64,000 nt of DNA from the NCBI RefSeq assembly GCF_004010195.1, contig NC_057755.1, positions 4,177,462 to 4,241,461 of the forward strand. Reading direction: 5' to 3'. Each line of letters opens with the position of its first letter. Within the stretch, counting starts at the first letter, position 1. The position numbers and the translations under genes are program-made. Source of the DNA: Chiloscyllium plagiosum (taxonomy: Eukaryota). Shown one piece after another: positions 11,940-64,000 of the stretch. The notes beneath the pieces were generated by a model that saw only the letters and a list, made by a program, of their open reading frames with translations, made no database searches and had not been told where the DNA came from.

Positions 11940-12039
11940 AAACAGGAAAAATCAGCTGCTCAGTTCCATCACAGGTTTCTTGTCCCTCCATTACTTGGAG
12001 ATAACAGAAGCCCTCTCTGTCCAGTCCCTATTCCAACAA

Positions 12040-32900: not shown

Positions 32901-32961
32901 CCACGCATGTCAGCTCCACAATCCCAGTGTCCAAATAGAATTGTGCATCTACATGGTGGTG

Positions 32962-33280
32962 GCATGGTGGCACAGTGGTTAGCACTGCTGCCTCACAGCG
33001 CCAGAGACCCGGGTTCAATTCCCGCCTCAGGCGACTGACTGTGTGGAGTTTGCACGTTCTCCCCGTGTCTGCGTGGGTTTCCTCCGGGTGCTCCGGTTTC
33101 CTCCCACTGTCCAAAGATGTGCAAGGCCAGGTGAACTGGACATACGAAATTGTCCGTAGTGTTAGGTAAGGGGTCAATGTAGCGGTATGGGTGGGTTGCG
33201 CTTCGGCGGGTCGGTGTGGACTTGTTGGGCCGAAGGGCCTGTTTCCACACTGTAATGTAATCTAAATAATCTAATCTAAA
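32962..33280 (+). mobile_element. Full-length young HE1-type V-SINE
   Basis: tRNA-derived head with A box (TGGCACAGTGG) and B box (GGTTCAATTCC), V-domain and (AATCT)n tail. Absent from the homologous site at ~15890. Confidence 0.92.
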
Positions 33281-44860: not shown

Positions 44861-45383
44861 CCATCTTGGGAAATTTTCCCCATTGCCAGATAAAAACCAG
44901 TGCTCTAGCTATCCTGGAACAGCTTGGTTCTGAGCAGCATTGTGGAATAGAGATGCAAAAATGCATTCCAGGCAATATGTATCATTGACTCCTGCCCCAA
45001 TAAAGTTTCATTGCATCAAATCAAACATGGGCCAGGGCACCTCCTATCGATTCTAATGACCTTCACCCACAACATGCCTCCCTGATGACACATCTTTAAG
45101 TGGAAACACTTCGAGGAAGCACTGAGAGAGAAACGACAAAGACAGCGCAAAGGAATCTCTCTTTCTATCTCTCACACGATCTCTCTCTCTCAGAAGTCCA
45201 CCTGACTCTTCTGCTGAGAAAACATCAGGAACACTGTGGAGCACTTTCATCCTCAGACTACCTGGAAACAGTTCCTGTCTGTATCCTCCTAAAGTCTGCT
45301 TTGATTGTCTTCCCTGTTCACTGCCTTCCTGTTCAATTTGCATGTCATCTGCAAAGTTGGAAGTTATGTCGTAAGAACCCACG

Positions 45384-45633
45384 TGTCGTGGTTATACTGA
45401 GGTCAGGCAGGTGGACCTCAGAGAATATGAGTCCCATGATTGGGGTTGTTAATCTGGTACAAGCAGGGAGCCCTAGCTGACAGATAAAAGAAAACGAGTG
45501 TCAGGTGTCCTGAAGCTCTGAGACCTGGTTCTGAGGGAAAAGGAGCAGTGTCACCTCCTTTTTATTTACTTGCCCCATGTAAATAAAAGGTGGCGTGATG
45601 ATGGGATATCAGTCTGTGTGGAGTTATATTACA
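45384..45633 (+). mobile_element. Probable short solo LTR
   Basis: TG...CA termini, TATA-like GATAAAA and AATAAA; no clear TSD. Confidence 0.45.
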
Positions 45634-48567
45634 AAGTCCTGTAAAATTCTGAATATAAGCTGCCACCAGTAAGTCTCAGCTGCCAGGAGCACATGTTGGA
45701 TATTGTGTCTGTGATGATTGTGAAGTTCAGTGTTATTTTAACGGATCGATCCTGTGATGCCAGTGCTACTGATATTAACCTTGTATTATAATTTATCACC
45801 GAGCTCCACAGGAGTAAGGGAAGGAATATGATAGACCTTTCAAATATAGAGAAAGTCTAATTTGAAGACGCTGAACCTTTCTTATATAATGTCCATAATT
45901 CTCAAGAATCAGCAGAAGCATTGTTCTCCAATCTCTGTTCAGATCAGTTTTTCCCATCTAGATGTTGAACTTGGAATGGTTTGAACCATATAATCTACAC
46001 TGCTCCCATTTCCTGTACTTTTTTTTTATTTCTTGTATCTCAATCTTCATGAAATCTCAACTGAAATATGCTCTGGTGAATATTTCCAGGATGTGAACAG
46101 AGGGACACAGAAGGAAACACCCTAGTTCCAGAGAGCTTTTCAATGATAGAGAGAGGGGAGAGAGAGAGAGAGAGAGGGAGAGGGAGAGGGAGAGAGAGAG
46201 GGACACGGTAGGTGGCAAGTTGAACCCAACGATCGCCTTGCTTCTCTACATCTCACATCAGTCGTACAACCAATTGTGTTAACGGATTATGACTTATGAC
46301 ATTGTGATTGAGGGGGTGGCAGTTATACAGTTACAAATCACCGTTAGGCCTTAGACATAGTCTTGAAGAACTCCAGCAGTGACGTCTGGAGATTAAATGG
46401 CTGGCTTCCAACGAACACACCAGTCACATGTAGTCCAGACCAGGTACAGACAGTCAATTTCTTTCCGTAAAGGACATTAGTGAAACAATGGGTTTTTACA
46501 ACAAGTTACAATGGTTTCCTCGTCAGTATTAGAGACATAATTCCAATTATTTATTCAACTGAAGTTCTGGAATCCATCATGATAAGACTTGTCAGAGGTG
46601 GTACTGCAGATGTTGGAGATTAGAGTCAAGATTAGAGTAGGTCATCAGGACGAAGGGCTTTTGCCAGAAACTTCGATTTTCCTACTACTCGGATGCTGCC
46701 TGACCTGCTGTGTTCTTCCAGCACCACTCTAATCATGATAAGATGACCTGAGCCCATCATAATACTTTGGAAGTATCTGAATATTTAGAACCCAAACGTG
46801 ATACTTTTGTTCCAATAACCAAAATAAGGGTTTTCTGTTTTGTTATTTAACATTGAATGTAATATTAATTTGTCATTATTTGGTTTCTGGAAAATGGGAA
46901 CGTAGACATAATGGGGCTGAAAATTGCATTTAATTGGATTGACTGTGAACAATTGTGAGACCATTTCGGTTACCTCTGATTGAGATGGGTTCGTGTATTT
47001 GTTCAGTGGGAAGCCTGAAGGAATCATGGATGTGCCGAGTGAACTGTTTTCCTGTGCAAAGGAATGTATTAAGTAGAAAGGTAGAAGAATAATTTACATG
47101 TGTTATGTGTGTGCTTGAATATGTGTGTGTGAAATGCCTCATTCTTCCACATTATGAGTGTTCTATGAAGAATTCTTCCTCTCACTTAGCCTTAAAGGAC
47201 GTTGGAATGTTTTGATCCTCCAGTGCTCTGGTTTCCTGCCAAAATCCAAAGATGTGCAGGTTAGGTAAATTGACCAAGCTAAATTGCCCATAGTGTTCAA
47301 GTATGAGTAAGTTGGGACATTCGTTGGGGCTAGGTGTAGAGCAATGGGGTGAAGGAGTGGGCCTAGGTGGGTTGGCCTTCGGAGGGTCGTTGTGGACTTA
47401 TTGGGCAGAAAGGCCTGTTTCCACATTGTCGGGGATTCTATTCTCTCCTGTAGTTTTGGCGAGTGTAAAAGTGGACAAGTCCTGAGGTCTGCAGGAGCCG
47501 TAACGAACGAGATGACGATGGAAATTATAAGTACTGTGATCAAATGTTTAATTCCTCTTCAGCTACCCGATTAGTCAGAGGACTTCAGCACAGCTGATGT
47601 GTTTCCACTTTTCAAGAAGGGTGGTGGAGATTCACTGCGAATTACACGTCAGTGATTCCCAGTGCACGGGAAACTATTAGAGAAAATTCTGAAGGAGAGA
47701 ATTGATCTCCATTTTGAGAGGCAAGGCTAGATCAGTCACTGTGGCTTTGTTACAGGGATGAAATGGCTTACAAATCTGGTGGAGTTTTTCGAGTAGTTGA
47801 CCGTGTCTGGAGATGAGGGTAGGGCAACTGGTGAGGGTAGGGTATATGGTTTTCAGCAAGGTATTTGACAAGGCAGCACATGGGAGATTAATAACTAAGG
47901 TAAAAGCACATGGCATACAAAATTAATTAATTAGCAAATTGGTTCCAAAAGTGGCTCTGTCAGAGGAGGCAGAGGGTGTTGATCGAAGGCTGGATGTGTA
48001 ATTGGAGACTGGTGTTCAGTGCAGTGGTATACCACTGGGATGGATGTTGTGTCCCTTACTGTTGGTGATATTCATAAATAATAATGAAGAGTGCATGTTT
48101 GTGCATGCACATGCGCCCATGTGTATGTGTGTCTGCTGTATCTGTATCTGAGTCAGTATGTGTGTTTGTGTGTGTGTGTGCGAATGTGTGTGCTGTACGG
48201 AATGAGGGTGGGTGGGGATGATAAATAAGTTTGCGATGACAAAAATATTGATCGGATGTTTGACAGTGAGGAAAATATTCTTAGGTGACAAACAGAAATA
48301 GTTAGGTTGGTCACATGGGCAGATCAATGGCAGGTGGAATTTAACCCTGATAAACCTGTAGGTGATACACGTTGTCACAAGTTTCAAGACAAGGCAGTAC
48401 TCAATGAATGGTATGACATTAGAAAGGGCAAAGGAACCAAAATATCTTGTGGAGCTTGTTAACAAATCTCTAAAGGTAGTAGGACAGGTCAGTAGGGTAG
48501 TTCAGAAGTCGTATATGATATGTGCCTTTACCATTCCAGACATCAGAGCAGGGAGGTCCTGTTGGAG

Positions 48568-49130
48568 TGAAACTTTATATCCTGTTGCAGGCCCTCTTGG
48601 TCCTGGGACTCGACAAAAGAATGACTAGGAGTACAATCTGCTTAAAGCAAGTTTACCAGTTTAATAAATTAATAAATAGAAGTAGCCTGGGGTAGATTTG
48701 CCAGGCAACATGGAGGTTAAAAGTTTCTGTGTTCCGTAGAGAAATGGTGCAAATACATTTACGTTTTTTTTTAATAGATAGTACAGCCTTAATTACAAGA
48801 AAAGACCAATCATATCTAATAAGGTGAAATGATTGACAACAGGCTAATCCAATGATATTTCAAGGGAAACAGATTGTTATGTGCATGTTTACTAGTTCAA
48901 GGTTACCTCAAAGACGAAATCACTGTCTTATAATTCATATTATGAAAATCCATTATAATCTCTTATCTTCTATTTAGCTTAACTCAACAAAACAGCAGCA
49001 CAAGTTCACAGAGTCAAGTTCATACTTTCAGACATTATGTTGTGTTATTTTAAATTGAAAAGCCATTTCGTGGTTAATAAAAATCTACGTATCCTTGTTG
49101 CAACTGATAACAGCCTAAATTCAAATTATA
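48568..49130 (-). mobile_element. ERV 3' LTR, inverted duplicate copy
   Basis: Reverse complement of 60639-61301, preceded on the minus strand by the PPT-like AGGGAATGAGGA. Confidence 0.8.
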
Positions 49131-49156
49131 GATCCTCATTCCCTGCGTTGGTCATT

Positions 49157-50950
49157 CTATGACCACACCATAAAGGCATGGACCAAATTAATCCAATTCG
49201 GTGGCAGTGAAAGACTGCAATCCTTTCTCTTCCTCTGAAGAGGAATCAAGGACAGGCGATGATGCTTCCTCATCATCATAAAAGTGAGAAGAAGCATTTT
49301 CTGGGTGCAACCAATGTTGTCAATAGAAATTAATATTTTAGCAATAATACACTTATCAATAGCAATGCTAACAAAATGAGCAAATGAACAATAGCAGCAT
49401 ACATAGCCATATTGATAAACCATAAACCAAAACCCCAATCTCCCCACCCTGCATCTTCATTCATTTGGTTGACAGAAATGCGGATGATATCTGTATGTCC
49501 AATAATGTTTTCGATAAAGTTAGTGACCCCCATGATGCACTTCCCTTTGACTATGACACAAACGCCACCTTCCTTCACAATAATGTAATCGAGAGCATAG
49601 CAGGTTTTGTTGGGTAAATAGGCACAATTCTGAAAGTAAGACCCTTATTTCTATTAGGCAGCAGTTGTCTCATTTCATGAAATTGTGGGTCCACAAATAT
49701 TTTGATGATTAATAACTCCTGAAGTCCCTCTAACGGAAAGAACACGAAGTGCTGCATATGTTAATGAGTGAGTTTTACTATTTGATAGAAGCTTTGGATC
49801 CTTCCATTCTGCTCAAAAGTCAGAAGAAACTGAAAGTTTGACACGGGAATTTGAATCTCGGTGCCAGGTAATTGGACGGGAACAGGAGTTGGAAATGATG
49901 CTTCTACAGATACAACACGTGGAGTACTTGCTATATTCAGGACAAGATACCTTCCTATAACTGAATAATAATATCCAGGTTAAGTATAGATAATGGAGGG
50001 ATCTTCCCAATAAAAAGCGGGCCTATCTTTGTGACTTCCTGAGGTACCTGGGTAATCCTTGATTACATAGTTTGGTCCAAACATAAAGGCTGGAAATTAT
50101 TCAGTCTAATGAGGTGGGTCTCTTGATAAGAATCGTGGTCGACCTCGCAGAATGGTTCTACCCATCCAATAACTGGGAAGATATTAGTGCAATTAGGTGT
50201 ATCGTAATGAAGTTGGTTGTGGCAAACCACCCCACAAAGGGTTTGAATGCCAGAGGTAAAAGAGACACATTCACTCCTTCAGGGAAATAGTGACAACTGA
50301 TAAATATAGGCATAGCACAGGGGATACTTTTAGGGAATTTTACACTCCAATCCGTGCACACCCATCCCTTACTGTTGTAGCAATTTGAATAGGATATAGC
50401 GGATTTATTGGAGGATGTCCATAATCCTGTAAATACTTTAGAATTATTCGTACCCCCATGTTAGGATTTGGAAGGATAAATGAGGTCAGGGAGTGTATTG
50501 CTGAAGTAAAGGCGTAACTTCAACCTCTCCAAATATGTTATTATGAGTTTCGATGAACAAATTGTTAGTGAAGGATAGCATCCCACCTTTCCTCTTTTAC
50601 TACATGATCTATCTGAAAGGGGCATGGCTCAGTAGAGATGCCCATTGTACAAATGAAATTAAACTGACGTACAACATCTTTAGACGATAAAGACCATTTA
50701 GATTTGTTCTGTAAATGAACTGGTCAACCTTTTTGATGCAGTTGACCACTGCATTAGTCATTCTTGGTAACATTCAGTCTCTTGGCACACAAGGACATCT
50801 TCCTGGCAGAGATGGTACACAGTCTCTGGTTGCTCAGGATCGCACTGGTAAACTGTCCCTTCTTGTGCTCCAAATCTGGCAATGGCAAGTCCATGCAGCC
50901 GAGCAAGTGCGATCTATAATATCTCTCCCCTTCCACCCCCATTTGCAAGT
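49157..50950 (-). pseudogene. env: ERV env pseudogene, second copy
   Basis: ICGPTIS*NETTAA...SELCLFTQQN...DYIIVKEGGVCVIVKGKCIMGVTNFIENI...GWGDWGFGLW followed by a TM helix; many stops and frameshifts. Confidence 0.88.
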
Positions 50951-51450
50951 NNNNNNNNNNNNNNNNNNNNNNNNNNNNNNNNNNNNNNNNNNNNNNNNNN
51001 NNNNNNNNNNNNNNNNNNNNNNNNNNNNNNNNNNNNNNNNNNNNNNNNNNNNNNNNNNNNNNNNNNNNNNNNNNNNNNNNNNNNNNNNNNNNNNNNNNNN
51101 NNNNNNNNNNNNNNNNNNNNNNNNNNNNNNNNNNNNNNNNNNNNNNNNNNNNNNNNNNNNNNNNNNNNNNNNNNNNNNNNNNNNNNNNNNNNNNNNNNNN
51201 NNNNNNNNNNNNNNNNNNNNNNNNNNNNNNNNNNNNNNNNNNNNNNNNNNNNNNNNNNNNNNNNNNNNNNNNNNNNNNNNNNNNNNNNNNNNNNNNNNNN
51301 NNNNNNNNNNNNNNNNNNNNNNNNNNNNNNNNNNNNNNNNNNNNNNNNNNNNNNNNNNNNNNNNNNNNNNNNNNNNNNNNNNNNNNNNNNNNNNNNNNNN
51401 NNNNNNNNNNNNNNNNNNNNNNNNNNNNNNNNNNNNNNNNNNNNNNNNNN
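50951..51450. other. Assembly gap
   Basis: N run. Confidence 1.
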
Positions 51451-52191
51451 ACTGAAGTCACTCATTTCTCTGAAAACAGAGTTATAACCCACTGCATTTA
51501 GCTGACAAAAGTTTAAAATCAATCAGCTAATATGTACGATAACTGTTCGTGGGATGCTAAAACAAGATTTATTGTCCATTCCTTATTGCCCAGAAGGCAT
51601 TTGGGAATGAATCTGGAGTCACGTGTAAATCAGTGTAGGTAATGTTCTTCACTTAAGAACATTAATGAAGTAGTTATTCACTTGTTTCACCACCATCATC
51701 CCTCCCCCAGATAAGCAATAGCGTTTTCATATTTGACATCAGATTATTTGGATATAATTCGTATTTCTTCTCCTTCCTCGATGAGATTCAAAGGCAGCTC
51801 TTCAGAACATGAGCTTGATGGTCTTGGATGTCCGTCCCGTGATAATCCCACCAGTCTACCATGAATTCCTTGTGCAGTTAGTGAATTATGGCAGACATTT
51901 CCCATGAGTAAACAATCCACTTCAGTTCTGAAACACTTCATGTTTATTTGCCTTTTGAAATAAATAAGCAGAAGATTACAACCTTTAAGGCCATTCCATG
52001 TCATTGGAAGTCACGGCATTGCTGCAAACGACAGGTGCCCCTCCCTTGTATTGGACTGTGTTCATTATGTACAGATTTCTCATCAGTGACTGCGCGAAAT
52101 ATGTCTTTAAGGTTCAGTGGTCTCACGGGCTGAGGTGAAACCTTGGCCCCTGACTGCAGGAATCAATAAACGTCTCGTCTTTGCTTTCCAG

Positions 52192-52325
52192 CTCGATCCC
52201 GGAAATGTATATTTGTGGGAGGGGTGTGCAGATTTGAAAAATGTCTCGATGATGAATTCGAGTTTGGTAAGGGTTGCAGACAACATCACCTTTGCTGCAT
52301 GAATATCAATGGACCGCAAGGTTAA
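52192..52325 (+). CDS. Beta-defensin-like mature peptide, terminal coding exon (phase 1)
   Basis: Follows the acceptor TCTTTGCTTTCCAG and reads RSRKCIFVGGVCRFEKCLDDEFEFGKGCRQHHLCCMNINGPQG*. Cysteine spacing is C-x6-C-x4-C-x10-C-x5-CC with GxC. An ATTAAA poly(A) signal lies at 52411-52416. Confidence 0.8.
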
Positions 52326-52619
52326 TCTGAGGCTGTGCTGAAGCTTACTGCAAAATCCTTTGTTATTGGATGTGTCCGCATGGACCCTAAGCCACTGTTT
52401 CTGTATCATCATTAAAGGTGTTCACTGTTACTCGCATCCCGTGGCCCGTGTCTGATTTCAGACCGTGACCGGTGTATCTGGTTATGTCTTTGGTGTGGGG
52501 ATAAGGACGCGGTGGTGGTGGTGGTGGTGGTGGTGGTGTGGGGGGGGGTGGGGGGGTTAATGATCAGAAATGGTAGAAATATGGTCACCACTGTCAGCTC
52601 CTAACTACCCAACTTCATA

Positions 52620-53014
52620 GAACCATTGTCAACAGAGCCCTCTTACCTGTGTCTGACCCATTTCCCACCCTTTCAACATCAACCCCTTACCCCTCTTACA
52701 GCAGAGATCGATTTCTCCTTGTCCTTACCTACCATACCACCACCAGCATCCACATCCAGAAAAACATCAGATCCCATTTATAACACCTCCAGTGAGATGC
52801 GACCACCAGACACATATTCCAACTTCCGCAGGAATCATTCCCTGTGGGACACCCTGGTCCACTCTTGCTTCACTCCTAAGAGCCCCAACACTTGTCTGGC
52901 ACCTTCCCTTGCAACCCCCTAAGGTACAACCTGCCAATTTACCTCTTCCCCACTCAGTATCCAAGGGCTCAAACATGCCTTTCAGGTGAAGCAACGATTT
53001 ATCATCACTTTTCA
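52620..53014 (+). mobile_element. Penelope-like element relic (RT/GIY-YIG linker)
   Basis: FRRNHSLWDTLVHS...GTFPCN...IQGLKHAFQVKQRF. Confidence 0.7.
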
Positions 53015-53109
53015 NNNNNNNNNNNNNNNNNNNNNNNNNNNNNNNNNNNNNNNNNNNNNNNNNNNNNNNNNNNNNNNNNNNNNNNNNNNNNNNNNNNNNN
53101 NNNNNNNNN
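53015..53109. other. Assembly gap hiding the ERV 5' junction
   Basis: N run. Confidence 1.
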
Positions 53110-53565
53110 GTATTCGAACTAACATTGAACCGCTACGATGACGTGTATATTTACATAAATTAAGACCCCTTCCCCAGGGAATATCGTTGGATTAGCCTGT
53201 TGTCAATCATTTTATCTATTACAGTTGATTGGACTTTTCTTGTAATTAAGAATCATTTCCCAGGAAATATCACTGGATTAATCTGCTGGAAATCATGTCA
53301 TCTTATTAAATGTGATTGGTCTTTTCTTGTAATTAAGGTTGCACTATCTCTTAAAAACAGACAAAGAATCTCAAAGATTCCAAGGTAATTGCACAACTTC
53401 ACCACAGAACACAAAAGTTTTAGCCTTTGTGTTGCTGAACAGAATTGCATCAAGGTGCCTTAATGCAATAAACTAATGACGCTTGCCTTTTTCTAAACTG
53501 CATTCCATTGAATATTTTGACCGATTACAAAACAAGAGGCCTCTCTTGAGGTGTTTGGATCTTCA
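53110..53565 (+). mobile_element. ERV 5' LTR (5' part lost in the gap)
   Basis: Homologous to ~60850-61301, including the duplicated ATTGG-containing unit. AATAAA at ~53467; ends ATCTTCA like the 3' LTR. Confidence 0.78.
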
Positions 53566-54529
53566 TTTTTGTGCCATGTTTCATTTCAGCTCAGACAGGT
53601 CGTTAACAGCGGTGTAAGAGTTAAATTTCTTTCACTATTCGGCCGGCCAGATGTGAACATTTTAAGAGCGTTTGGTTTTCCTCTCATTCAAGTCGTGTCT
53701 GACATGACCCCTCCCTGTTTATGTTCCAGTCCAGCTCAAAAGCATCGCTGTTAACAAGGGTTGTTTCTGGGGGACTATGGGGGTCGTGGGTGGTGGTGGG
53801 GAGACATTGACTGAGGTTAGCGTTGCTTTTGTACTTAGGACAGTGGTTTCCGAAAATTGCTGAACTACGAGGAGAGTGTTGAACTCTGAATCTCCCGAAC
53901 TTCGTTCATTTCCTGGTTTAAAAAGAAGCTCCAATCTTTGGATCTTCAGCAGTTTTTCGAGGCTGGTGGCCTCAACAGTTTTAATACAGGCAGTTAACTA
54001 TTACAGAGATAGGAGCCCCCCCACCCCCCCCACCCCCGATATTTGTGGCTATTACTGGGGCAGTTGACCCCGATATTTAATACAGGTGGTTGATGTTAAT
54101 TTACAGTGTATTGACTAAGATTTATCTGCTTATAATAGATAGAAAGGAGGCCTGGATCTTAATAATAAGTTAATAACTAATAATAATAATACCTTAAAAA
54201 ATCAATACTGAAGTTGATTAATAAAAGAAAATATTGCAGTATTTTATAAATAAAGGTTAATTTAGTTTTTAAAAAGAGTTTGCGAAATAAATTAACGTTT
54301 GTGGAATCCTGATTGGTGAGTTATTTTTTAATCAGTTGCTATAAAACTGAAGTAATTTTAAAATGGGTAATTGCATAGACAGAACAGATGATCCATCCCC
54401 ATCGTTAGTGACATTATGTGAAAAAGCTCGAGATCCATGACTGTTTTGAATCTGATTTGCATTTTGAAAATTTAACATGATTTATTTTAATGTTAAGGAT
54501 CCTTCAGTGATTCTGAAATAAAATATTAT

Positions 54530-54980
54530 CTCCTGTTCAGTTTACAGGTCATAACTGTCCTTACCCCACGTCACCCCAGCTGCAGCTTCCAGCTCAGCAA
54601 CGCTCTCATGACCTATCCTATCTGCCGATCTTCCATTCCACCTATCAACTCCACCCTCCTCTCTGACCTACCACCTTCATCCCCACCCCCATTCACCCAT
54701 TGTACTCTTTGCTACCTTTTCCCAACATCATTTCTGACCATCCCCATCCCCATTTACCATCTTCCATCCCCACCCTCATTCACCTGAAGTCCTCTATCCT
54801 ACTCTCTCTCCACCCCCACCCCCCTCTCATTTATCTCTCCACCCTGCAGGCACCCTGCCTCTATTCCTGACGAAGGGCTTTTGCCCGAAACAATGATTTT
54901 CCGGCTCCTTGGGTGCTGCCTGACCTGCTGTGCTTTAATCTCGACTCTGGTTTCCAGCATCTGCAGTGCTTGTTTTTACC
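54530..54980 (+). mobile_element. Penelope-derived repeat inserted in the ERV
   Basis: C-rich tract followed by ATTCCTGACGAAGGGCTTTTGCCCGAAA...GCTGCCTGACCTGCTGTG, seen repeatedly in the window. Confidence 0.55.
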
Positions 54981-56056
54981 ATGGCTGCCCTACTGTCAGT
55001 TTCTAACAAATACCTTTTATTCTTACGAGAAAGTCAACCTTATTCGATTTCAAATCAGTTTAATAAGCAGCAACCTTTTTTGTTTCAGACTCGCTTGTTT
55101 CCACTTAATATTAAGTCTGCTGTGTTTAATTGGTGATCACTGATAAGCACAGTTGTAGTCTTATTGAGGGAGTCTCCTCCCTCAATGACTATTGAAGTTT
55201 CAGTTCAATATTGGATTGCGATAAATCATCTAACAAAATTAGAACCCGATGGTTAATATCTGTGTCTTTGGATTCAGCCATTATTCATGCACTAGAAGTT
55301 TGCTTTTTCATTTGAACAGACAAAACCTTTTGAGGCAGCTTCCGTTATTTCACGACCTTTAGCATTGTAAATGTGCAATGACTGGTCAAGACCAATCTTG
55401 GACTTTTAGGGTAATTATAGTGGATTTCAATGTTGGGAACCGTGTACATTTTACGTTTTAAATATTAAATGATGAACAAATGAATTTGCAATTTATATTG
55501 ATGACTGAAAGAAAATAACATGCGGCATGTTACTTAGATACATAGTGTAAAAATAATGACCAGAGATATATTACCACAGAGGAGATCTGCTCTCAAAACA
55601 AGAAAAGAGAACTAACCACTGTTGATCCTCCAATGTCCACAAAAAGAAATGAAAACTTGTTTTCCAGGCTCTTCTTCAGCTGGATCCCCACTCAATAATG
55701 GGCAAAGTGTGCTTGGTAACACTCCACTCAATATCCACACTAAATTCTATCCACATCATTAGCAGTCTCTAAAAATGTAAAAGGACTACTGACTGACTTA
55801 AGCAGTCACCGCTGTCACCCAGAATTCCACCCTTTGGACAATAGGGACAGCCAAACACATCAAGGAATAGGTGTTAAATCAATCGCTATTTCATTTGTAG
55901 CATCACTGCCCCATTGCCATGGAGTAAGCAGGCTCAATAATTTCGCAGCCATGTGATACAGTGACCAGGATGATTGAAAGAGACAAATCACCTATTTTGT
56001 TATTCTCCTCTTGCAAATTTTGATTCGCTGAAAATTCAAGTCCGAAGAGTAACTTT

Positions 56057-56378
56057 CAGATTATTTATTATTATTTTTTAATTAGATTACATTGCAGTGT
56101 GGAAACAGGCCCTTCGGCCCAATAAGTCCACACCGACCCGCCGAAGTGCAACCCACCTACATTTACACCTTACCTAACACTACGGGCAATTTCGCATGGC
56201 CAATTCACATTTCCTGCACATCTTTGGACTGTGGGAGGAAACTGGAGCACACGTAGGAAACCTGCGCAGACTCGGGGAGAACGTGCAAACTCCACACAGT
56301 CAGTCGCCTGATGCGGTATTTGAACCTGGGTCTCTGGCGCTGTGAGGCAGGAGTGCTAACCACTGTGCCACCGTGCCG
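56057..56378 (-). mobile_element. Full-length HE1-type V-SINE inserted in the ERV
   Basis: Reverse complement of 32962-33280. Confidence 0.92.
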
Positions 56379-56749
56379 CCCACTAATGACAATTATGACA
56401 ATCAAGATTCCAAAATGTATAGTTAGCAACAGGCTTTAAAGTTAGACAAACATAAATTGTTAAATTGGTTAAATAAGGTTAAAATTAAATTAGAGCCGAG
56501 GAGATCAACAACAGAAGGGAACGGAATGATGCAATAACAAGGATAAAACAAGGATAAAGCAGTAGAATACAGATTTTAAAAATGTTTTAGTTAGATTCCC
56601 ACACTGAATTACAGATAATGATTCATTTATTCATTACTTTATTATGATACTTTATACTATTTATAATAATCAGTTGTATTCGCCCCAATCAAATTTCATT
56701 GGCAGGGTCGCTTGTTTTAATTCCATTGCACATTGTCAGTGACCTGTCT

Positions 56750-57135
56750 TATTGCCTCATGGCTAACTTAAAACATGGCTGCATTAATTTATTGTTAATT
56801 AAACAATGGAAAGATAACTTACTGTCCAGTTGAAGACATTCTGTATGTGATTGGGGGATTGAACCATGATGCAAGTTACAGGTAAACCAAATTATATCCA
56901 GCGCCCTCACGATCCCAAAAGCCATATGCCAGTCCTGATATGGTTGATTGGAACCAGGATAGCCAATGGGGGCGGAACCTACTTCATGCACCAACCCGAC
57001 GACCACTGCTGGACAACCTTTTCCCGAAAATGGGGACAGGCAATTCCCAGAACTTCACCTTTGAGACGAGGAACAAGAAAGCAAAATCTCCCAGGGACAT
57101 ACGCCTGGCCCTTGCTTTAACTGTTGAAATGTGAC
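56750..57135 (+). pseudogene. gag: ERV gag C-terminal remnant with truncated zinc knuckle
   Basis: GPCFNC*NV at 57107-57133 is the first half of CX2CX4HX4C. Confidence 0.6.
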
Positions 57136-57164
57136 CAAGGCGGAGTAATAAGTTTTTAATGGTA

Positions 57165-57440
57165 GCTCGGAACTGATGTTGGGAATCGGCATGCTTTCAT
57201 CCTATCAAAAGGAAAATCTACAAATATACACTGACTCTTCATTGTGTTTTTAAAATGATCCACGATGTTGGAGTTTTGTGGGAACATTGAAGATTTGTAA
57301 CCACCCAAGGGGGCAGTGTTATAGTAATGCTATTTTGTCCAATCAATCTGACGCTTTTCAAGATGTTTAGCTCATGCCAATAAAGCTGATACTGTTTCTA
57401 AAGTAGTGGGTAAGTATATGCAGCTGCCAAGTAGGCCGGC
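57165..57440 (+). pseudogene. pol: ERV pol RNase H remnant
   Basis: With frameshifts: AC..LSKGKSTN / IYTDS / HCVFKMIHDVGVLWEH*RFVTTQG ... AHANK...AAK, matching the class I motif NIYTDS.YAFGVVHDFGALW..RGFLT..G. Confidence 0.82.
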
Positions 57441-58673
57441 TTTCACAGCAAACTTCTGAGCCCATTGGGTCCCCCAGCAAAACCCGGTTAGACACAGAAT
57501 AAGGACGGGTATGCCAGCTCTGGGTAAGGTACAGAAATCACCGGGGAATGAGACTATCTGTTCAGTGCCAATTCACAATGTAAAGGTTGATATATCTATT
57601 GCTTACTCACTGTAAAAAAGTTTACTGTTTGAATCATTTTCCATATTGTTTAGAAATTTGGAAGTAATTTTCAAATGACCATTTCTGAAATGATACAGGC
57701 ACTTTATATTAAAATATACTACTGACTGAATTATCAAGTGATTTGAGTTCATACATAGACACTAAGACTAAATGTCGTTGCTTTGTGTTTGCAGCTTATC
57801 TGAATGCACACTAGTTGATTTGATTTATCTTTGGACGGGGCTGTTAGATGTAAGGAGGAATGTCCGGCTGAACTATTACCTTCAATTAGATATTTGATAC
57901 TGAACAGTGATGGTTTATAATTTTAAGACTGTGCCAATGTCCAAATTCAAGGTTCGCTCAATATTAGAAAATGTCAGTGTGGTTTGAAAGCTTTGTGTCA
58001 TGTTACTATAATTTGGGGACAGCATTGCCCACCAGCTACTCATCGCCAACTTTTCTGCTCAAAATGACCATCTGGTTGCTACACTGAATTCTAAATACTG
58101 TTAACTACAGCTGTAGGTCGGGCCATTCGATTGGGCACGAAGTTGACGTATGATTTTAAAGAGAATACAATATATTGCGGAACTAATCTAAATTTTAGGT
58201 AAAATTGATGTTTTTCGCAGCAAACCTTCGAAGACTATTACCTCTTAGCAAAGCTGGCTTTATAAAAATAGGATTGTTTAATTCGCCCATGCCAGGGCTC
58301 CTCCATATAAAGTAAGAAAATAATGGATAGGAAGGGAATCTCTGGTGCAAAGTTTAAAAATAATGAGCCTTTTGCCAGTGTGAGCGATATATTTACTCAA
58401 GTGGGCTACATGAGTTTGATTAAATTGAGAATTATTTATTTCAAAATTGCTCTTAAGACTTCTAGCCTGCTGATGGGCACACATTATGGCCTCAAATAGG
58501 GTACTCCCACGATATTCAAACCAGAATATAGGTGAGTCCTACTACATGAGTTTGTGTTACTGCTTTGCTGCTGCATATTTTAATTGAGGATGTGTATATT
58601 GTATACACTTATATACAAGGAGGGAATGGTTTATACTTTATTACAATGGACACTCCACGGCCTCATACCCTGA

Positions 58674-58775
58674 TGGGAAGGACCCTTCCAGGTCGTCCTC
58701 ACCACCCCAACTGTTGCTTAGGTCGCAGAACGTTCTGGCTGAGTCCATCTCCATCATTGCAAGGTCATCAGAAAA
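58674..58775 (+). pseudogene. pol: ERV integrase C-terminal domain remnant
   Basis: WEGPFQVVLTTPTVA*VAERSG*VHLHHCK matches the WxGPyxVllTTPTAvkv...WiHxshcK motif. Confidence 0.88.
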
Positions 58776-58779
58776 GCCA

Positions 58780-60617
58780 CTTGCACGCGGGATGGAAGAG
58801 GAGAGATAATATAGATCGAACTTGCCCGGCTGTGTGGACTTGCCATTGCCAGCTTTGGAGCACAAGAAGGGACAGTTTACCTGTGCGATCCAGAGCAACC
58901 AGAGACTGTGTATCATCTCTGCCAGGAAGATGTCCTTGTGTGCCAAGAGACTGAATGTTACCAAGAATGAGTAATGCAGTGGTCAACTGCATCAAAAAGA
59001 TTGAACAGTTCATTTACAGAACAAATCTAAATGGTCTTTACCCTGTAAAGGTGTTGTGTGCCAGTTAAATTTCATTTGTACTATGGGCATCCCTGGTCAG
59101 CCATGTCCCCTTTTAGATAGATCATGCAGTAAAAGAGGAAAGGTGGGATGCGATCTTTCACTAACAATTTGTTTCTCGAAACCCATAATAACTTATTTGG
59201 AGAGGTTGAAGTTACGCCTTTACTTCAGCAATAGACTCCCTGACCTCTTTTCTCCTTCTAAATCCTATCATGGGGGTATCGAATAGTTCTAAAGTATTTA
59301 CAGGATTATGGACATCCTCCAATAAATCCGCAATATCCTATCCAAATTGCTACAACAGTAACGGATGGGGGTGCACGGATTGGAGTGTACTTATGTAAAA
59401 TTGCCTACAATTATCCCCTGTGCTATGCCTAAATGTATCAGTTGTCACTGTTTCCCGGAAGGACCACACATTCCTTCAGGAGGAATGTGTCTCTATTACC
59501 TCTGGTATTCAAATTCTTTGTGGGGTATTTTACCACCACCAACTTCATTATGATACACCTAATTGCACTAATATTTTCCCCGTTATTGGATGGGTAGAAC
59601 CATTCTGCGATGTCGATCACGTTTCTTATCAAGAGACCCACCTCATTCGACTGAATGATTTCCAGCCTTTTTGTTCGGAACCAAACTATATAATCAAGGA
59701 TTACCCAGGTACCTCAGGAAGTCACAAAGATAGGCCCGCTTCTTATTGGGAAGGTCACTCCATTATCTATACTTAACCTGGATATTATTATTCAGTTATA
59801 GTGAGGCATCTTGTCCTGAATACAGCAAGTACTCCACGTGTTGTAGCTGTCGAAGCATTATTTCCAACTCCTGTTCCCTGTCCAATTACCTGGCACCGAG
59901 ATTCAAATTCCCGTGTCAAACTTTCAGTTTCTCCTGAGTTTTGTGCAGAATGGAAGGATCCAAAGTTTCTATCAAATAGTAAAACTCACTCATTAACATA
60001 TGCAGCACTTAGTGTTCTTTCCGTTAGAGGGTCTTCAGGAGTTATTAGTCATCAAAACATTTGTGGACGCACAATCTCATGAAATGAGACAATTGCTTCC
60101 TAATCGAGGTAAGGGTCGTGCTTTCAGAATTGTGCCTATTTACCCAACAAAACCGCGATGCTCTCGATTACATTATTGTGAATGAAGATGGCATTTGCAT
60201 CATAGTCAAAGGAAAGTGCATCATGGGGGTCACTAACTTTATCGAAAACATTACTGGACAAATAGATATCATCCGCACTTCTGTCAACCAAATGAATGAA
60301 GGTGCAGGGTGGGGAGATTGGGGTTTTGGTTTATGGTACAAAGGGCTTATCAATATGGCTATGTATGCTGCTATTGTTCATTTGGTCATTTTGTTAGTAT
60401 TGCTATTGATCAGTGTATTATTGCTAAAATATTAATTTATATTGACAACATTGGTTTCACCCAGAAAATACTAATTCTCCACTTTGATGATGATGATGCG
60501 GAAGCATCATCGCCGGTCCCTGATTCCTCTTCAGAGGAAGAGAAAGGATTGCAGTCTTTCGCTGCCATAGAATTGGATGAATTTGGTCCATGCCTTTATG
60601 GTGTAGTCATTGAATGA
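58780..60617 (+). pseudogene. env: ERV env pseudogene with filovirus-GP2-like TM subunit (TM from ~59924)
   Basis: Decayed furin site RVKL at 59912-59923, Cys pair at 59942/60062, NET, ISD-like QQNRDALDYII, CX6C, NIT, Trp-rich membrane-proximal segment, TM helix and acidic tail. Confidence 0.9.
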
Positions 60618-60624
60618 TCAACGC

Positions 60625-60636
60625 AGGGAAGGAGGA
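60625..60636 (+). promoter_or_regulatory. Polypurine tract
   Basis: AGGGAAGGAGGA between the env stop and the LTR. Confidence 0.75.
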
Positions 60637-60638
60637 TC

Positions 60639-61301
60639 TATAATTTGAATTTAGCTGTTGTCAGATGCAACAAGTATATGTAGATTTTTATTAACTACGA
60701 AATAGCTTTTCAATTTAAAATAACACAACATAATGGCTAAAAGTAAGAACTTGACTCTGTGAACTTGTGCTGCTGCTTTGTTGAGTTAATCTAAATAGAA
60801 GATAAGTGATTATAATGGATTTTCATAATATGAATTATAAGACAGTGATTTCGTATTTGAGGTAAACTTGAACTAGTAAACATGCGTACAACAATCTATT
60901 TCCCTTGAAATGTCATTGGATTAGCCTGTCGTCAATCATGTCACTATATTACAGTCGATTGGACTTTTCTGCTAATTAAGATACTTTTCCCAGGAAATAT
61001 CATTGGATTAACCTCCTGTAAATGATGTCACCTTATTAGATATGATTGGTCTTTTCTTGTAATTCAGGCTGTACTATCTATAAAAAACATAAGTAATAAG
61101 TAATTGTCAAATGTATTTGCACTATTTCTCTACGGAGCACAGAAACGTTTAACCTCCGTGTTGCTTGGCAAATCTACCCCAGTCTACCTCTATTTATTAA
61201 TTTATTAAACGTGTAACCTTGCTTTAAACAGATTGTACTCCGAATCATTCTTTTGACGAGTCCTAAAACCAAGAGGGCCTGCAACGGGGTATAAATCTTC
61301 A
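60639..61301 (+). mobile_element. ERV 3' LTR
   Basis: Follows the PPT. Contains tandem ATTGG-containing units, TATAAAA at ~61079 and ATTAAA at ~61204. Ends TTCA before CR1 sequence. Confidence 0.82.
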
Positions 61302-62700
61302 CTCCAACAGGACCTCCCTATTCTTATGTCTCGAATGGTAAAGGCACATATCCTATACGCCTTCTGAACGACCCTATTAACCTGTCCTGCTACCTTTAGA
61401 GATCTGTTAACAAGCTCCTCAAGATCTTTTGGTTCCTTTGCCCTACCTAGTGTCGTATTATTCATTGAGTACTGCCTTCTTTTGAAGCTTCTAGTAACCG
61501 GTATCACCTACAGGTTTATCAGGGTTACATTCCACCTGTCATTGATCTGCCCATTCACCAACCTTTCTATTTCTGATTGTCACCGAAGAATATTTTTCTC
61601 ACTGTCAAACATCCGATCAATATTTGTGACATGGCAAACATATTTATCATCCCCACACACACTCAGCCCCTACAGCACACACATTCACAACACACAAGCA
61701 TACTCTGACACACACAAACACGAACACACAGACTCACTCACATACAGACACAACAGACACACACACACATGTGCACACGTGTGCATGCACAAAAAGGCAC
61801 ATTCTTCATTATCATTTATGAATATCACCAACAGTAAGGGACCCAACATTCATCCGAGTAGTACACCACTTCATCTGATCACCAGCCTTCAATTACACAT
61901 CCAGCTTTCTATCAACACCCTCTGCCTCCTCTGACAGAGCAAATTTTGGAACCAAATTGCTAATTAATTGTGGATGCAACGTGCTTTTACCTTAGTTATC
62001 AATCTCCCATGTGCTGCCTTGTCAAAGGCCTTGGTGAAAGCCATACACACTGCATCAGTTGCCCTACTCTCATCGACAGACACGGTCAACTACACGAAAA
62101 GTCCCATCAAGTTTGTGAGCGGCACGGTGGCACAGTGCTTAGCACTGCTGCCTCACAGCACCAGAGACCCGGGTTCAATTCCCAACTCAGGCGACTGACT
62201 GTGTGGAATTTGCACATTCTCCCCGTGTTTCCTCTGGGTGCTCCGGTTTCCTCCCAGAGTCCAAATATGTAAAGGTCAGGTGAATTGGCCATGCTAAATT
62301 GCCTGTTGTGTTAGGTTAATGAATGGGAATGGGTGGGTTACGCTTCGGCGGGTCGGTGTGGACTTGTTGTAAATACTGTAAATAATCTCATCTAATCTCT
62401 GTAACAAAGCCGCAGTGACTGATCTAGCCTTGCCACTCAAAATGGAGATCAATTCTCTCCTTCAGAATTTTCTCTAATAGTTTCCCGTGCACTGCGAATC
62501 ACTGACGTGTAATTCCAGGTCAATCTCCACCACACTTCTTGAAAAGTGGAAACACATCAGCTGTGCTGAAGTCCTCTGATTCATCGGGTAGCTGAAGAGG
62601 AATTAAAAATTTGATCACAGTACTTGTAATTTCCACGATCATCGCCTTGGTTACAGCTCCCGCAGACCTCAGGACTTGTCCACTTTTGGACTCGCCAAAA
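61302..62700 (-). mobile_element. CR1 LINE relic into which the ERV integrated (mirror at ~47450-48567, + strand)
   Basis: Minus strand SKSGQVLRSAG...ADVFPLFKK and SLKVAGQVNRVVQKAY. Confidence 0.8.
62119..62397 (+). mobile_element. HE1-type V-SINE present only in the right arm
   Basis: tRNA head and V-domain; the homologous site at ~47755-47770 is empty. Confidence 0.88.
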
Positions 62701-62714
62701 CTACTGTATAGAAT

Positions 62715-62925
62715 AGAATCCTTACAGTGTAGAAACAGGCCCTTCGGCCCAACAAGTCCATGCCGACCCTCCGAAGGGCAACCCATACTGGCCCAATACT
62801 CTCCATCTAGCCGCAACGAATGCACCCAACCTAGTCTTACCCGAACATGATGGGCACTTTAGCTTGGTCAATTCATCTAACCTGCACATCTTTGGATTGT
62901 GGGAGGAAACCAGAGCACCTGGAGG
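62715..62925 (-). mobile_element. Older HE1-type SINE 3' part shared by both arms (mirror ~47220-47440)
   Basis: GAAACAGGCCCTTCGGCCC...CCTGCACATCTTTGGATTGTGGGAGGAAACC. Confidence 0.75.
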
Positions 62926-64000
62926 ATCAAGACATTCCAACGTCCTTTAAAGCTAAGTGAGAGAAAGAATTCTTAATAAAACACTCATAATGTTGATGCA
63001 TGAGGCATTTTACACACACACATTCAAGCACATGCATGACACATATGCCTCTCACACGTAAATTATTCTTCTACCTTTCTGCTGAATACATTACTTTGTA
63101 CAGGAAAACAGTTCCCTCGGCTTATCAATGATTCCTTCAGGCTTCCCACTGAAAAAATACACGAACCCATCTCAATCAGAGGCAACCTAAATGGTTTCAC
63201 AATTGTTCACAGTCAATCCAATTAAATAAATTTTCAGCCCCATTATGTCTACATTCCCATTTGGTAGAAATCAAATAATGAGAAATTAATATTACACACA
63301 ATGTTAAATAACAAAACAGAAAACCTTTATTTTGTTTATTGGAACAAAAGTATCACGTTTGGGTTCGAAATATTCAGATACTTCCAAAGTATTATGATGG
63401 ACTCAGGTCATCTTATCATGGTTAAAGTGGCGCTGGAAGAGCACAGCAGGACAGGCAGTATCCGAGGAGCAGAAAAATCGAAGTTTCGGGCAATAGCCCT
63501 TCGTCCTGATGAAGTGCTTTTGCCCGAAACATCGATTTTTCTGCTCCTCAGATGCTGCCTGACCTGCTGTGCTTTTCCATCACCACTCTAATCTTGACTC
63601 TAATCTCCAAAATCCGCATCACCACCTCTGACAAGTTTTATCATGATGGCTTCCGGAACTTCAGTTTAATGTGTGATTGGAATTTTGCCTCTAATACTAT
63701 TATTGTCAATTGTTGTAAAAAAAACCCATTGTTTCACTCATGTCCTTTTGGGGAAAGAAAACTACTGTCTGTACCTGGTGTGGTCTACATGTGACTGGTC
63801 TGTTTGTTGGAGGCCAGCCATTTAAACTCCAGGACTTCACTGCTAGCGTTCCTCAAGAATGTGTCTGAGGCCTAATTGTGTTTCGTGACTGACTAACTGC
63901 CACTCCCTCAATCATAACGTCATAAATCAGAATCCGTTAACACAATGACTTGTGATGTAGAGAAGCAAGGTAATCTTTAGGTTCAACTTGCCAACTGCCG

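Follow-up and report, generated by a model that had tools for sequence, protein, structure and literature searches.

A dead, 5'-truncated ERV env in Chiloscyllium plagiosum whose transmembrane subunit resembles filovirus GP2

The stretch of the Chiloscyllium plagiosum genome analyzed here (the window, 64,000 nucleotides of contig NC_057755.1) contains ERV-derived DNA between 58647 and ca. 61304, comprising only an integrase C-terminus, env, a polypurine tract (PPT) and a 3' LTR, all on the forward strand. The 5' end is an integrase C-terminus remnant of class I type (58647–58790), found by blastn to the pol end of the paralogues L040 and L031; its translation, WEGPFQVVLTTPTVA.. at 58674–58769, has three in-frame stops. 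Next is the remnant of a whole env (58967–60617) – leader, SU, TM and cytoplasmic tail – delimited by tblastn of paralogue env frames and from the list of ORFs, and interrupted by several stops and frameshifts. The PPT, AGGGAAGGAGGA (60625–60636), was read off the sequence, and LTR homology begins at ca. 60632. The 3' LTR (60632–61304, ends approximate) was recognized by blastn to the 5' and 3' LTR pieces of L040 and L041 and to L032, L035, L038 and L039, and contains an 86–87-bp unit, repeated twice, at 60899–61064. With the integrase remnant upstream and the PPT and LTR downstream, the gene is a true retroviral env, and the earlier note had placed it correctly between these features.

The rest of the provirus was sought upstream. 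Pfam analysis of 46 frames upstream of env (53400–58971) gave no gag or pol match, and one sub-threshold match to Cyclin_C (E 0.034). A tblastx search of 44000–64000 with positions 2501–8100 of L035 (gag, pol and the start of env) likewise gave no gag or pol match – outside env there were only short weak pieces at 54324–54429 and 57280–57315. Since gag, protease/RT/RNase H and a 5' LTR are absent from the window copy, it is a 5'-truncated remnant. A separate LTR fragment of the same family is found at 53111–53568 (forward strand), adjoining an N gap at 53015–53109. It was considered as the 5' LTR of the provirus and rejected, being 78–80% like the 3' LTR with no gag or pol between them.

The missing parts are present elsewhere in the family. 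Paralogues L031, L035 and L040 carry zf-CCHC (the Gag zinc knuckle), RVT_1, RNase_H, RT_RNaseH_2 and Integrase_H2C2 domains in Pfam, and the LTR, pol and gag context, the absence of which would have counted against an ERV, was found at the paralogous loci examined. The paralogue RT is closest to XMRV/MLV (E 1.4e-29, versus 4.4e-14 for foamy virus), and the RNase H is also closest to MLV/XMRV (E 1.5e-30). These gammaretroviral affinities suggest that the element belongs to class I.

Within the TM half, the frame 59777–60079 reads HRDSNSRVKL/SVSPEFC, 39 further residues and then ICGRTIS, and ends at an in-frame TGA (60080–60082). The SU/TM cleavage site is the degenerate RVKL at 59912–59923 (59912 being the start of the R codon). 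In the aligned frames this site ends in K-R in six of the 13 from the own genome and in two of the ten database proteins, nine of which have R as the final residue. The internal fusion loop (59942–60064) extends from Cys1 (59942–59944), seven residues beyond the site, through 39 residues with a hydrophobic core to Cys2 (60062–60064), the spacing and the loop length being those given in the earlier note. The window copy lacks four codons before Cys2 that its paralogues have. An N-glycosylation sequon, NET (60083–60091), directly follows the TGA in the same frame; 16 of the 19 own-genome frames covering this site have a sequon after Cys2, as do Marburg, Mengla and Tapajos virus GP. After a frameshift at 60098–60100, the next frame (60088–60432, 115 aa) carries LSELCLFTQQNRDALDYIIVNEDGICIIVKGKCIMGV..ENIT. 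Here the region 60100–60255 holds the end of HR1, an ISD-like motif (QQNRDALDY, from 60145), a CX6C with its cysteines at 60196–60198 and 60217–60219 followed by Ile rather than a third Cys, and the sequon NIT (60247–60255). A second frameshift of the TM half, at 60366–60384, is inside the membrane anchor and creates a false stop at 60433–60435. The end of env at 60435 in the earlier note must be moved accordingly – in the original frame the rest of the membrane anchor and an acidic cytoplasmic tail (60384–60617) continue to a TGA at 60615–60617.

A second copy of the remnant, 90.7% identical, is found on the reverse strand at 48469–50939, where it is cut by an N gap (50951–51450). The two copies are part of an inverted duplication (46206–50939 relative to 58789–64000), the homology of which continues past the LTR to the end of the window. 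The DNA alignment confirms that the same TGA and the same frameshift at 60098–60100 are present in both copies, and parts of the merged sequence proposed in the earlier note were found, each being checked against each copy. Copy 2 has lesions of its own: the Cys1 codon has become a stop, one base has been gained, and nine bases are missing at another point. The frameshift at 60098–60100 is also common to the 115-aa frames of L002–L007, and all seven of L001–L007 have this 115-aa frame, beginning and ending alike. On contig C46, copies were located at seven places from 3.896 to 4.357 Mb, at least seven copies within ca. 460 kb. The two copies of the window differ by a K2P distance of 0.084 over the ERV part and of 0.123 over the flank. 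The continuation of the duplication past the LTR makes this pair segmental duplicates of a single dead copy, and not the independent witnesses that they were first taken to be. An already broken, 5'-truncated fragment was later copied with its flanks by segmental duplication, and the locus is without function now.

The env family is very abundant in this genome. There were 1337 first-look candidates, and all of the 150 that were scored matched (E <= 4.5e-17). The longest open frame holding any of these 150 matches was at most 311 aa, whereas a whole env has ca. 550 codons. The clade of the window family also takes in proteins of Chiloscyllium, Rhincodon, Heterodontus, Hemiscyllium, Pristiophorus and Mobula, and whole Env frames of 433–646 aa, with signal peptides, are found in public assemblies and gene models; among the members of this loop-type clade are Heterodontus gene models named 'syncytin-1-like'. 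By eye, the N-terminal SU motif of the full-length relatives is N-L-F-x-x-x-H...C-Y-P, which has one Cys and is not a CXXC. One partly fitting read was found in 2–6% of each of two single-cell RNA runs, a figure that is no measure of expression.

The earlier note had reasoned that intact relatives without the cysteine pair would speak against its reading. This objection does not hold: among relatives open at these positions, Cys1 is kept in 12 of 13 own-genome frames and 12 of 13 chondrichthyan database proteins, and Cys2 in 18 of 19 and 12 of 14, respectively. CX6CC, by contrast, is never complete, its last Cys (the third Cys) being missing from all 29 own-genome frames and all 14 chondrichthyan proteins (0 of 43 in total). 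Marburg and Mengla viruses have Cys1, Cys2 and the third Cys (2 of 2 for each), while other gamma-type Envs have Cys2 in 1 of 32 and the third Cys in 31 of 32. The loop is 42–46 residues long in the nine own-genome frames with a whole loop, L025 being left out (43 residues in six of the nine), and of the 22 listed frames from chondrichthyans 21 have a loop of 39–46 residues, while in the remaining one, L025, an inner Cys gives a reading of 30. It is 44 residues long in Marburg and Mengla.

Searches of the PDB with the 115-aa window piece gave a best match of E 1.3e-6 to 9x3j_A (662 aa), which appears from its length, aligned residues and matched positions to be Mengla dianlovirus GP, followed by Ravn/Marburg GP2 (9e-5) and Ebola GP2 (1e-3 to 2e-2). 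The top 14 rows were filovirus GP2 except for a reptarenavirus GP2 (4n21_A, E 4e-3) at rank 9. With P0001, an own-genome paralogue that is open across the breaks, the top 34 rows were filovirus GP2. The first retroviral TM in these lists was syncytin-2 (E 9.8e-3 with the window piece, 2.1e-4 with P0001), and the match to ASLV TM was weak with both (E 0.39–1). This ranking is clean partly because the retroviral TMs with solved structures are all from mammals or birds. The colinearity with GP2 that the earlier note had claimed is borne out – P0001 aligns with Ebola GP2 (E 3e-8 to 4e-8) from 6–7 residues before Cys2 to past NIT with a single one-residue gap. Significant GP2 alignments start 5 to 15 residues before Cys2; Cys1 and the N-terminal half of the loop match by position only. 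In BLASTP, P0003 and Marburg GP are 30% identical over 135 aa (E 5e-20).

In a library of 1.84 billion proteins, Tapajos virus GP (E 2.8e-14) came ahead of every non-chondrichthyan Env. Against P0001 in the same library, seven loop-less gamma-type Envs (P0021, P0023–P0026, P0028 and P0029; E 5.5e-7 to 5.2e-5) outranked Mengla (7.1e-5) and Marburg (9.6e-5). A word-index protein search with P0001 and with alignment A2, the latter against proteins of 673–2000 aa only, gave no match.

Profile searches, as the earlier note had proposed, divided the family. The Pfam family PF22307 (Ebola-like_HR1-HR2, cut-off 27 bits) was passed by four of the five chondrichthyan database Envs scanned – P0003 (30.9 bits), P0005 (29.9), P0008 (28.1) and P0006 (27.6) – with P0011 below the cut-off at 25.7; P0001 had no match to it at E <= 0.01, and the window piece had none at the thresholds used. 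For TLV_coat (PF00429, cut-off 22.5 bits) the window piece scored 16.6 bits (E 0.0034), P0001 27.1 and the relatives 22.7–35.5, except for P0011, below the cut-off at 16.3. The GP1 family PF01611 matched none of the six chondrichthyan Envs and fragments scanned, nor Tapajos GP, compared with 668.7 bits for Marburg and 249.6 for Mengla. Judged by the scores of the PDB searches, the likeness of the window TM to GP2 is beyond chance.

The predicted structure of the TM of P0001 (pLDDT 73.9) has helices at 47–102 and 120–139 and shows the turn of a class I hairpin. In Foldseek its best rows were the post-fusion cores of Ebola GP2, syncytins, XMRV, PERV, CASV, Marburg and ASLV, at E 1e-2 to 3e-1, and GP2 was not told apart from the retroviral TMs. 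The full-length Env model (P0008, 42-row alignment) had a mean pLDDT of 54.6, with most of SU below 50 and too poor to compare; Foldseek of this model against the PDB gave nothing at E <= 1e-3.

An unrooted TM tree of 77 rows and 98 columns, with the loop columns and the CC column left out, was built without Ebola, Lloviu, reptarenavirus or ALV sequences. The loop-type clade has 39 rows (support 90/85). Marburg and Mengla group with a Callorhinchus ERV (96/66), Tapajos GP groups with ALV-like TMs (87/76), and these two groups together with the loop-type clade form a clade of 45 rows (89/64). The affinity with GP2 that the earlier note expected of a TM phylogeny is recovered with moderate support: the tree suggests a place for the shark loop-type clade beside Marburg/Mengla GP2, Tapajos virus GP and the ALV-like TMs, the values for the place beside filoviruses (89/64 and 96/66) being unstarred and the bootstrap not having settled. 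An AU test did not reject the loop-type rows and Marburg/Mengla as one clade (p 0.215).

The earlier note had suspected that related fish elements might already be described, and they are. PMC11521997 (Nat Microbiol 2024) reports filovirus-like ectodomains inside cartilaginous-fish ERVs, which its tree recovers, with a posterior of 0.83, as the sister group of the GP2 of ebola-, cueva-, marburg- and dianloviruses. Its supplement gives 14 loci in Amblyraja, Scyliorhinus, Chiloscyllium, Rhincodon and Leucoraja, with best viral matches to Marburg, Ebola, Mengla, Lloviu and Tapajos GP. The lineage and its sister position to GP2 are thus already published there, and the link drawn in the earlier note to the origin of filovirus GP2 was right and not new. 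In the main text of that paper the word 'cysteine' is absent and 'fusion' is found in the reference list only.

The locus is most probably (probability about 0.9) the dead env TM of a 5'-truncated class I ERV, later segmentally duplicated, from a cartilaginous-fish lineage with a filovirus GP2-like TM. In an intact member, the dibasic SU/TM site would be cut, and the new N-terminus of TM would present an internal fusion loop of ca. 40 residues, closed Cys to Cys, that would enter the target membrane; both the bond and the insertion are proposed by analogy with Ebola GP2 and ASLV TM. The long HR1 helix would build the trimer core, the ISD-like motif and CX6C loop would turn the chain, and HR2 would pack back to complete a class I hairpin, the helices and turn of which are seen in the predicted model. 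Since the clade lacks the last Cys of CX6CC throughout, SU was probably without the SU–TM disulfide used by gamma-type Envs and filoviruses. A bolder suggestion, possible though on balance doubtful, is that more than the HR1-ISD-HR2 core was acquired by filoviruses, and that their whole fusion subunit, including the disulfide-closed loop and perhaps the TM-proximal part of GP1, came from a shark-type Env lineage that works without an SU–TM disulfide and may still be active or co-opted in sharks and rays.

An ordinary gamma-type ERV env, with a generic likeness to GP2 (ISD, CX6C) and no special filovirus kinship, would account for the seven loop-less Envs that outscore Marburg and Mengla, the TLV_coat matches (weak for the window piece, passed by P0001), the moderate tree support, and the ranking of syncytins and XMRV TM with Ebola GP2 in Foldseek. 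It is nevertheless unlikely. The Cys-bounded loop is common to the clade and filoviruses, Cys2 being present in only one of 32 other Envs, and its lengths are close (39–46 in all but one chondrichthyan frame, against 44). Filovirus GP2 heads both PDB lists, four of five chondrichthyan database Envs pass PF22307, though P0001 does not, and Tapajos GP matches at 2.8e-14. The tree unites the clade with filoviruses even when the loop is excluded, in line with the published posterior of 0.83 (PMC11521997).

The opposite direction of transfer, in which an early-fish retrovirus took its env from a filovirus-like RNA virus, is compatible with an unrooted tree, which gives no direction, and with the position of Marburg/Mengla between ordinary gamma-type Envs and the loop-type clade. 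Against it, PMC11521997 reports that this ectodomain is missing from the fish filoviruses Striavirus, Thamnovirus and Oblavirus, and that the GP of Tapajos virus is grouped with lizard ERVs and separated from that of other filoviruses; gamma-type and loop-type Envs are, moreover, spread over retroviruses of all vertebrate classes. Such a transfer is improbable. That a LINE copied in a filovirus GP message, as might be imagined from the filovirus GP2s that are the best solved-structure matches, is contradicted by the integrase remnant directly upstream, the PPT and LTR directly downstream, the gag, RT, RNase H and integrase of the paralogues and the lack of a GP1 family match, and is hardly conceivable. 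A co-opted, syncytin-like host gene still in use at this locus, for which the 'syncytin-1-like' Heterodontus models and the whole Env frames of the public assemblies might speak, can be dismissed given the stops and frameshifts throughout env, common to its duplicates, and the 311-aa limit on open frames among the 150 scored matches.

The retroviral env with a GP2-like TM can be compared with several known systems. Reptarenavirus GP2 (CAS virus) was matched by the window piece (4n21_A) and by fold (4n23), more weakly than filovirus GP2, and in the tree of PMC11521997 reptarenaviruses are found next to tarsier ERVs and outside the shark clade. Classical gamma-type Env (MLV p15E and syncytins; TLV_coat) shares the ISD-like motif, the CX6C turn and the HR1/HR2 hairpin, but has an N-terminal fusion peptide without a Cys pair, and the third Cys. 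The TM of ALV/ASLV has an internal fusion peptide between two Cys, like the shark TM, and ALV-like TMs fall in the same 45-row clade, both ALV-like rows being without their N-terminal parts (the loop region); ALV differs in its CX6CC and covalent SU–TM link.

Tapajos virus GP, from a snake filovirid, is the closest exogenous virus protein in the 1.84-billion-protein library. Like the shark clade it has a two-Cys loop (37 residues) and no third Cys, and when it is aligned with a shark Env, the C-terminal part of SU is included too (32% over 202 aa); it differs in having CX7C rather than CX6C and in missing the second sequon. Filovirus GP2 (Marburg, Mengla, Ebola) and the shark TM, at ca. 30% identity, have the same elements in the same order: a Cys-bounded internal loop (44 residues, against 39–46 in the shark family), N-x-N-x-L-[IV]-C and, seven residues beyond Cys2, a sequon, then HR1, the ISD-like motif (N-R-x-A-[IL]-D) and GG-x-C-x6-C, followed by another sequon, a stretch rich in Trp and the anchor. 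Filoviruses have the third Cys, through which GP2 is joined to GP1, and the shark TM lacks it; the systems as a whole are also different – an RNA virus genome with GP1 (PF01611) on one side, and on the other a retrovirus whose SU has no detectable GP1 counterpart.

The origin of filovirus and reptarenavirus glycoproteins is a real question, and its published answer for the nearest retroviral relatives of ebola- and marburg-type GP2 is the ERVs of cartilaginous fish (PMC11521997). The window locus adds no new kind of element. Three modest additions go beyond the main text of that paper: the kinship takes in the Cys-bounded fusion loop and its architecture, in columns outside the tree; the shark clade, like Tapajos GP, lacks the GP2–GP1 Cys, which bears on the evolution of the SU–TM link; and the copy number is very high in at least one genome, which supplies plenty of copies for dating and for a phylogeny with denser sampling. 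Compared with the ERV ectodomains described in PMC11521997, the host group, the HR1-ISD-HR2 domain and the retroviral context are the same, and there is no difference in kind from the elements presented there – the window locus is a further copy, and a badly decayed one.

The TM half of the env remnant lies at 59912–60435 on the forward strand, in a remnant that starts at about 58967 when paralogue frames are aligned on the window. The frame at 59777–60079 (+) encodes the C-terminal end of SU and the start of TM: RVKL (59912–59923), then SVSPEF, then the two cysteines that bound the fusion loop (Cys1 at 59942–59944, Cys2 at 60062–60064), with 39 residues and a hydrophobic core between them. 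An in-frame TGA (60080–60082) comes next, with NET directly after it and a first frameshift between 60098 and 60100. A 115-aa frame (60088–60432, +) encodes the last part of HR1, then QQNRDALDY, DGIC-x6-C with Ile directly behind it, and NIT, and after these a Trp/Gly-rich stretch and a hydrophobic anchor. Alignment of intact paralogue frames on the window showed an additional in-frame stop (59774–59776), the absence of four codons directly before Cys2, and a second frameshift (60366–60384). Because of this frameshift the stop at 60433–60435 is false, and the original env frame, with its acidic cytoplasmic tail, ended at the TGA at 60615–60617. Translation and the paralogue frames show that the SU part is also interrupted at several places.

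The env remnant is preceded by the C-terminus of a class I integrase (58674–58769, +), which contains three stops and matches the pol ends of paralogues. It is followed on the same strand by a polypurine tract (60625–60636) and an LTR, which is about 670 bp long and reaches ~61304. This LTR contains an 86–87-bp unit twice and matches 5’ as well as 3’ LTR pieces at paralogous loci. A Pfam search of 46 frames of 53400–58971 found nothing retroviral and only one sub-threshold match. A tblastx search with 2501–8100 of the paralogous locus L035 (gag, pol and the start of env) found env matches only, save short weak pieces at 54324–54429 and 57280–57315. With an integrase end, env and 3’ LTR but no further pol or gag upstream, this copy is therefore a 5’-truncated remnant. 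Paralogues encode a Gag zinc knuckle, RVT_1, RNase_H, RT_RNaseH_2 and an integrase zinc domain. Their reverse transcriptase is closest to XMRV/MLV (1.4e-29), as is their RNase H (1.5e-30), with foamy virus and Ty3 well behind. The element belongs to class I, in agreement with the earlier note.

A second copy is inverted at 50939..48469, with 90.7% identity to the first and an interruption by an N gap. The homology extends past the LTR (46206–50939 matches 58789–64000). The in-frame TGA is common to both copies, as is the first frameshift, and the second copy has extra lesions. In the whole genome, the 115-aa frame has an identical start and end in all seven of the loci L001–L007, and seven places of the family are within about 460 kb on the window’s contig. 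Loci of this type and the window pair are segmental duplicates of an already dead copy, not independent insertions. Between the window copies, the K2P distance is 0.084 over 2455 sites of the ERV part (58789–61304), compared to 0.123 over 2310 sites of the flank past the LTR (61305–64000); gene conversion and differing base make-up are possible reasons for the difference. A search of the 3.56 Gb genome with the 115-aa piece gave 1337 first-look candidates, and 150 of 150 scored were matches (E 3.8e-70 to 4.5e-17). Open frames around the scored matches reached 311 aa at most, compared to about 550 codons for the whole env.

The window itself is a nest of palindromic segmental duplications. A satellite array (19222–23888; 19-bp unit, about 246 copies, 86% match) abuts an N gap (23889–24440) and is surrounded by a large inverted duplication (11710–18633 versus 41879–30153, 80–87% identity). 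Young direct duplications are found at 9241–10584/10585–11939 (tandem, 1.35 kb, 96%), 37650–40282/41218–43842 (2.6 kb, 97.8%) and 27047–27913 (a 432-bp unit twice, 97%). A short interspersed repeat of about 170–310 bp, 75–88% alike, is found in both orientations (692–861, 32958–33269, 56078–56386, 62112–62369), and one copy is located in the flank that was duplicated with the ERV remnant. Microsatellite tracts, CA-rich and GT, occur at 61640–61790 and 3297–3713.

Compared to all solved chains, the window piece matched filovirus GP2 best (an apparent Mengla chain at 1.3e-6, Ravn/Marburg at 9e-5, Ebola at 1e-3 to 2e-2), with CAS reptarenavirus GP2 at 4e-3, syncytin-2 at 9.8e-3, MLV at 0.15 and ASLV TM at 1. 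With P0001, a 242-aa paralogue frame from the same genome that is open through the breaks, 34 filovirus rows (6.9e-9 to 1.1e-4) were ahead of syncytin-2 (2.1e-4), and the alignment to Ebola GP2 extends from 6–7 residues before Cys2 to past NIT with a single one-residue gap. The observation of a retroviral TM resembling filovirus GP2 is confirmed in sequence. Significant GP2 alignments begin only 5 to 15 residues before Cys2, and the first half of the loop agrees by position alone. Four of the five chondrichthyan database Envs scanned passed the Pfam Ebola-like HR1-HR2 cut-off, with P0011 just under it; P0001 had no match to this family. Most of the chondrichthyan Envs scanned also passed TLV_coat, and none matched the GP1 family.

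A HMMER search of 1.84 billion representatives, with a cut-off of E ≤ 1e-3, returned 57 proteins. Closest, with E down to 6e-50, were Env-like proteins of Heterodontus, Mobula, Pristiophorus, Hemiscyllium, Chiloscyllium and Rhincodon and of further assemblies. Second in line (2.8e-14) was the glycoprotein of the snake filovirid Tapajos virus, whose BLASTP alignment to a shark Env includes the end of SU (32% over 202 aa). One result speaks against a special kinship to filoviruses: seven Envs without the loop (5.5e-7 to 5.2e-5), including those of a Stegostoma shark and a sea snake, scored above the Mengla (7.1e-5) and Marburg (9.6e-5) glycoproteins.

A tree was built with IQ-TREE (LG+C20) from 77 TM rows, with one short row dropped. 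Its 98 columns extend from behind Cys2 up to where the anchor begins and exclude the loop and the third-Cys column. The shark loop-type Envs formed a clade of 39 rows (90/85), Tapajos grouped with two ALV-like TMs (87/76), and Marburg and Mengla grouped with a Callorhinchus ERV TM (96/66). All three are in a 45-row clade (89/64), with ordinary gamma-type Envs outside. The tree is unrooted, its bootstrap is unsettled, and none of its deep branches is starred; an AU test did not reject loop-type Envs and Marburg/Mengla as one clade (lnL difference 1.69, p 0.215). The Callorhinchus milii gene model (P0076, 414 aa) has an integrase C-terminus in one frame with a short env-like part, in which an RSRR site, an N-terminal fusion peptide and GGVCKVIGPECC are present. 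The tree places the TM of this model with Marburg/Mengla (96/66) despite its lack of a Cys-bounded loop. P0018, P0022, P0077 and P0078, a sister group of one shark subclade, have the loop Cys pair and lack the third Cys.

A full Env model of a relative was poor (pLDDT 54.6), and a PDB search with it gave no match. In the TM subunit model (pLDDT 73.9), a long helix (47–102) is followed by a turn at CX6C, a helix (120–139) and an anchor helix. The top-ranked Foldseek matches of this model were post-fusion cores of Ebola GP2, syncytin-1/-2, XMRV, PERV, MPMV, CASV, Marburg and ASLV; the predicted fold is the common class I hairpin, which does not discriminate between filovirus and retroviral kin.

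Cysteines were counted on the profile alignment, with the frames covering each column as denominators. Cys1, Cys2 and the third Cys (the last of CX6CC, linking to SU or GP1) were present in 12/13, 18/19 and 0/29 frames of the same genome, 12/13, 12/14 and 0/14 chondrichthyan database proteins, and 1/8, 1/32 and 31/32 other Envs. Marburg and Mengla have all three (2/2 each); Tapajos has Cys1 and Cys2 and lacks the third. The sequon after Cys2 is present in 16/19 frames of the same genome and 14/15 chondrichthyan proteins. The earlier note’s claim of a TM colinear with GP2 was not refuted by intact relatives, because Cys1 and Cys2 are retained in most of those covering these columns.

The text of PMC11521997 (Nat Microbiol 2024) describes filovirus-like ectodomains within retroviral elements of cartilaginous fish. 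The 14 loci given come from five species, and among viruses they are most similar to Marburg, Ebola, Mengla, Lloviu, Tapajos and CAS virus. There, the ebola-, cueva-, marburg- and dianlovirus ectodomains are sister to the cartilaginous-fish ones (posterior 0.83), Tapajos virus is placed with lizard ERVs, and three captures from retroviruses are proposed. Its main text does not contain ‘cysteine’ and has ‘fusion’ in references only; its figures and two supplementary files are outside this check. A review (PMC9967133) treats GP2 as a gamma-type Env homologue and distant kin of ALV TM, with a glycan near HR1 in common, and sharks are absent from the available text of a preprint on anamniote Envs. 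A literature search for descriptions of the loop in shark ERVs found nothing beyond these papers. The interpretation as a retroviral env with a filovirus-type TM is supported, but it is not new, the central claim having already been published, and the window locus is a dead, duplicated fragment. Some small novelty may lie in the architecture of the loop, taken as an independent shared character, in the clade-wide absence of the third Cys, and in the copy number.

Of the 22 chondrichthyan frames listed, 21 have a loop of 39–46 residues (the paralogous locus L025 has 30, read through an inner Cys); the loop has 44 residues in both Marburg and Mengla, and 37 in Tapajos. At the SU N-terminus, an N-L-F-x-x-x-H motif is conserved in the chondrichthyan Envs P0003, P0008 and P0011, in P0014, and in the window remnant around 59150–59200. 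In full-length shark-clade relatives it is followed by a single Cys (C-Y-P), where fish gamma-type Envs have CXXC, while the Tapajos glycoprotein has a motif similar to that of the shark clade.
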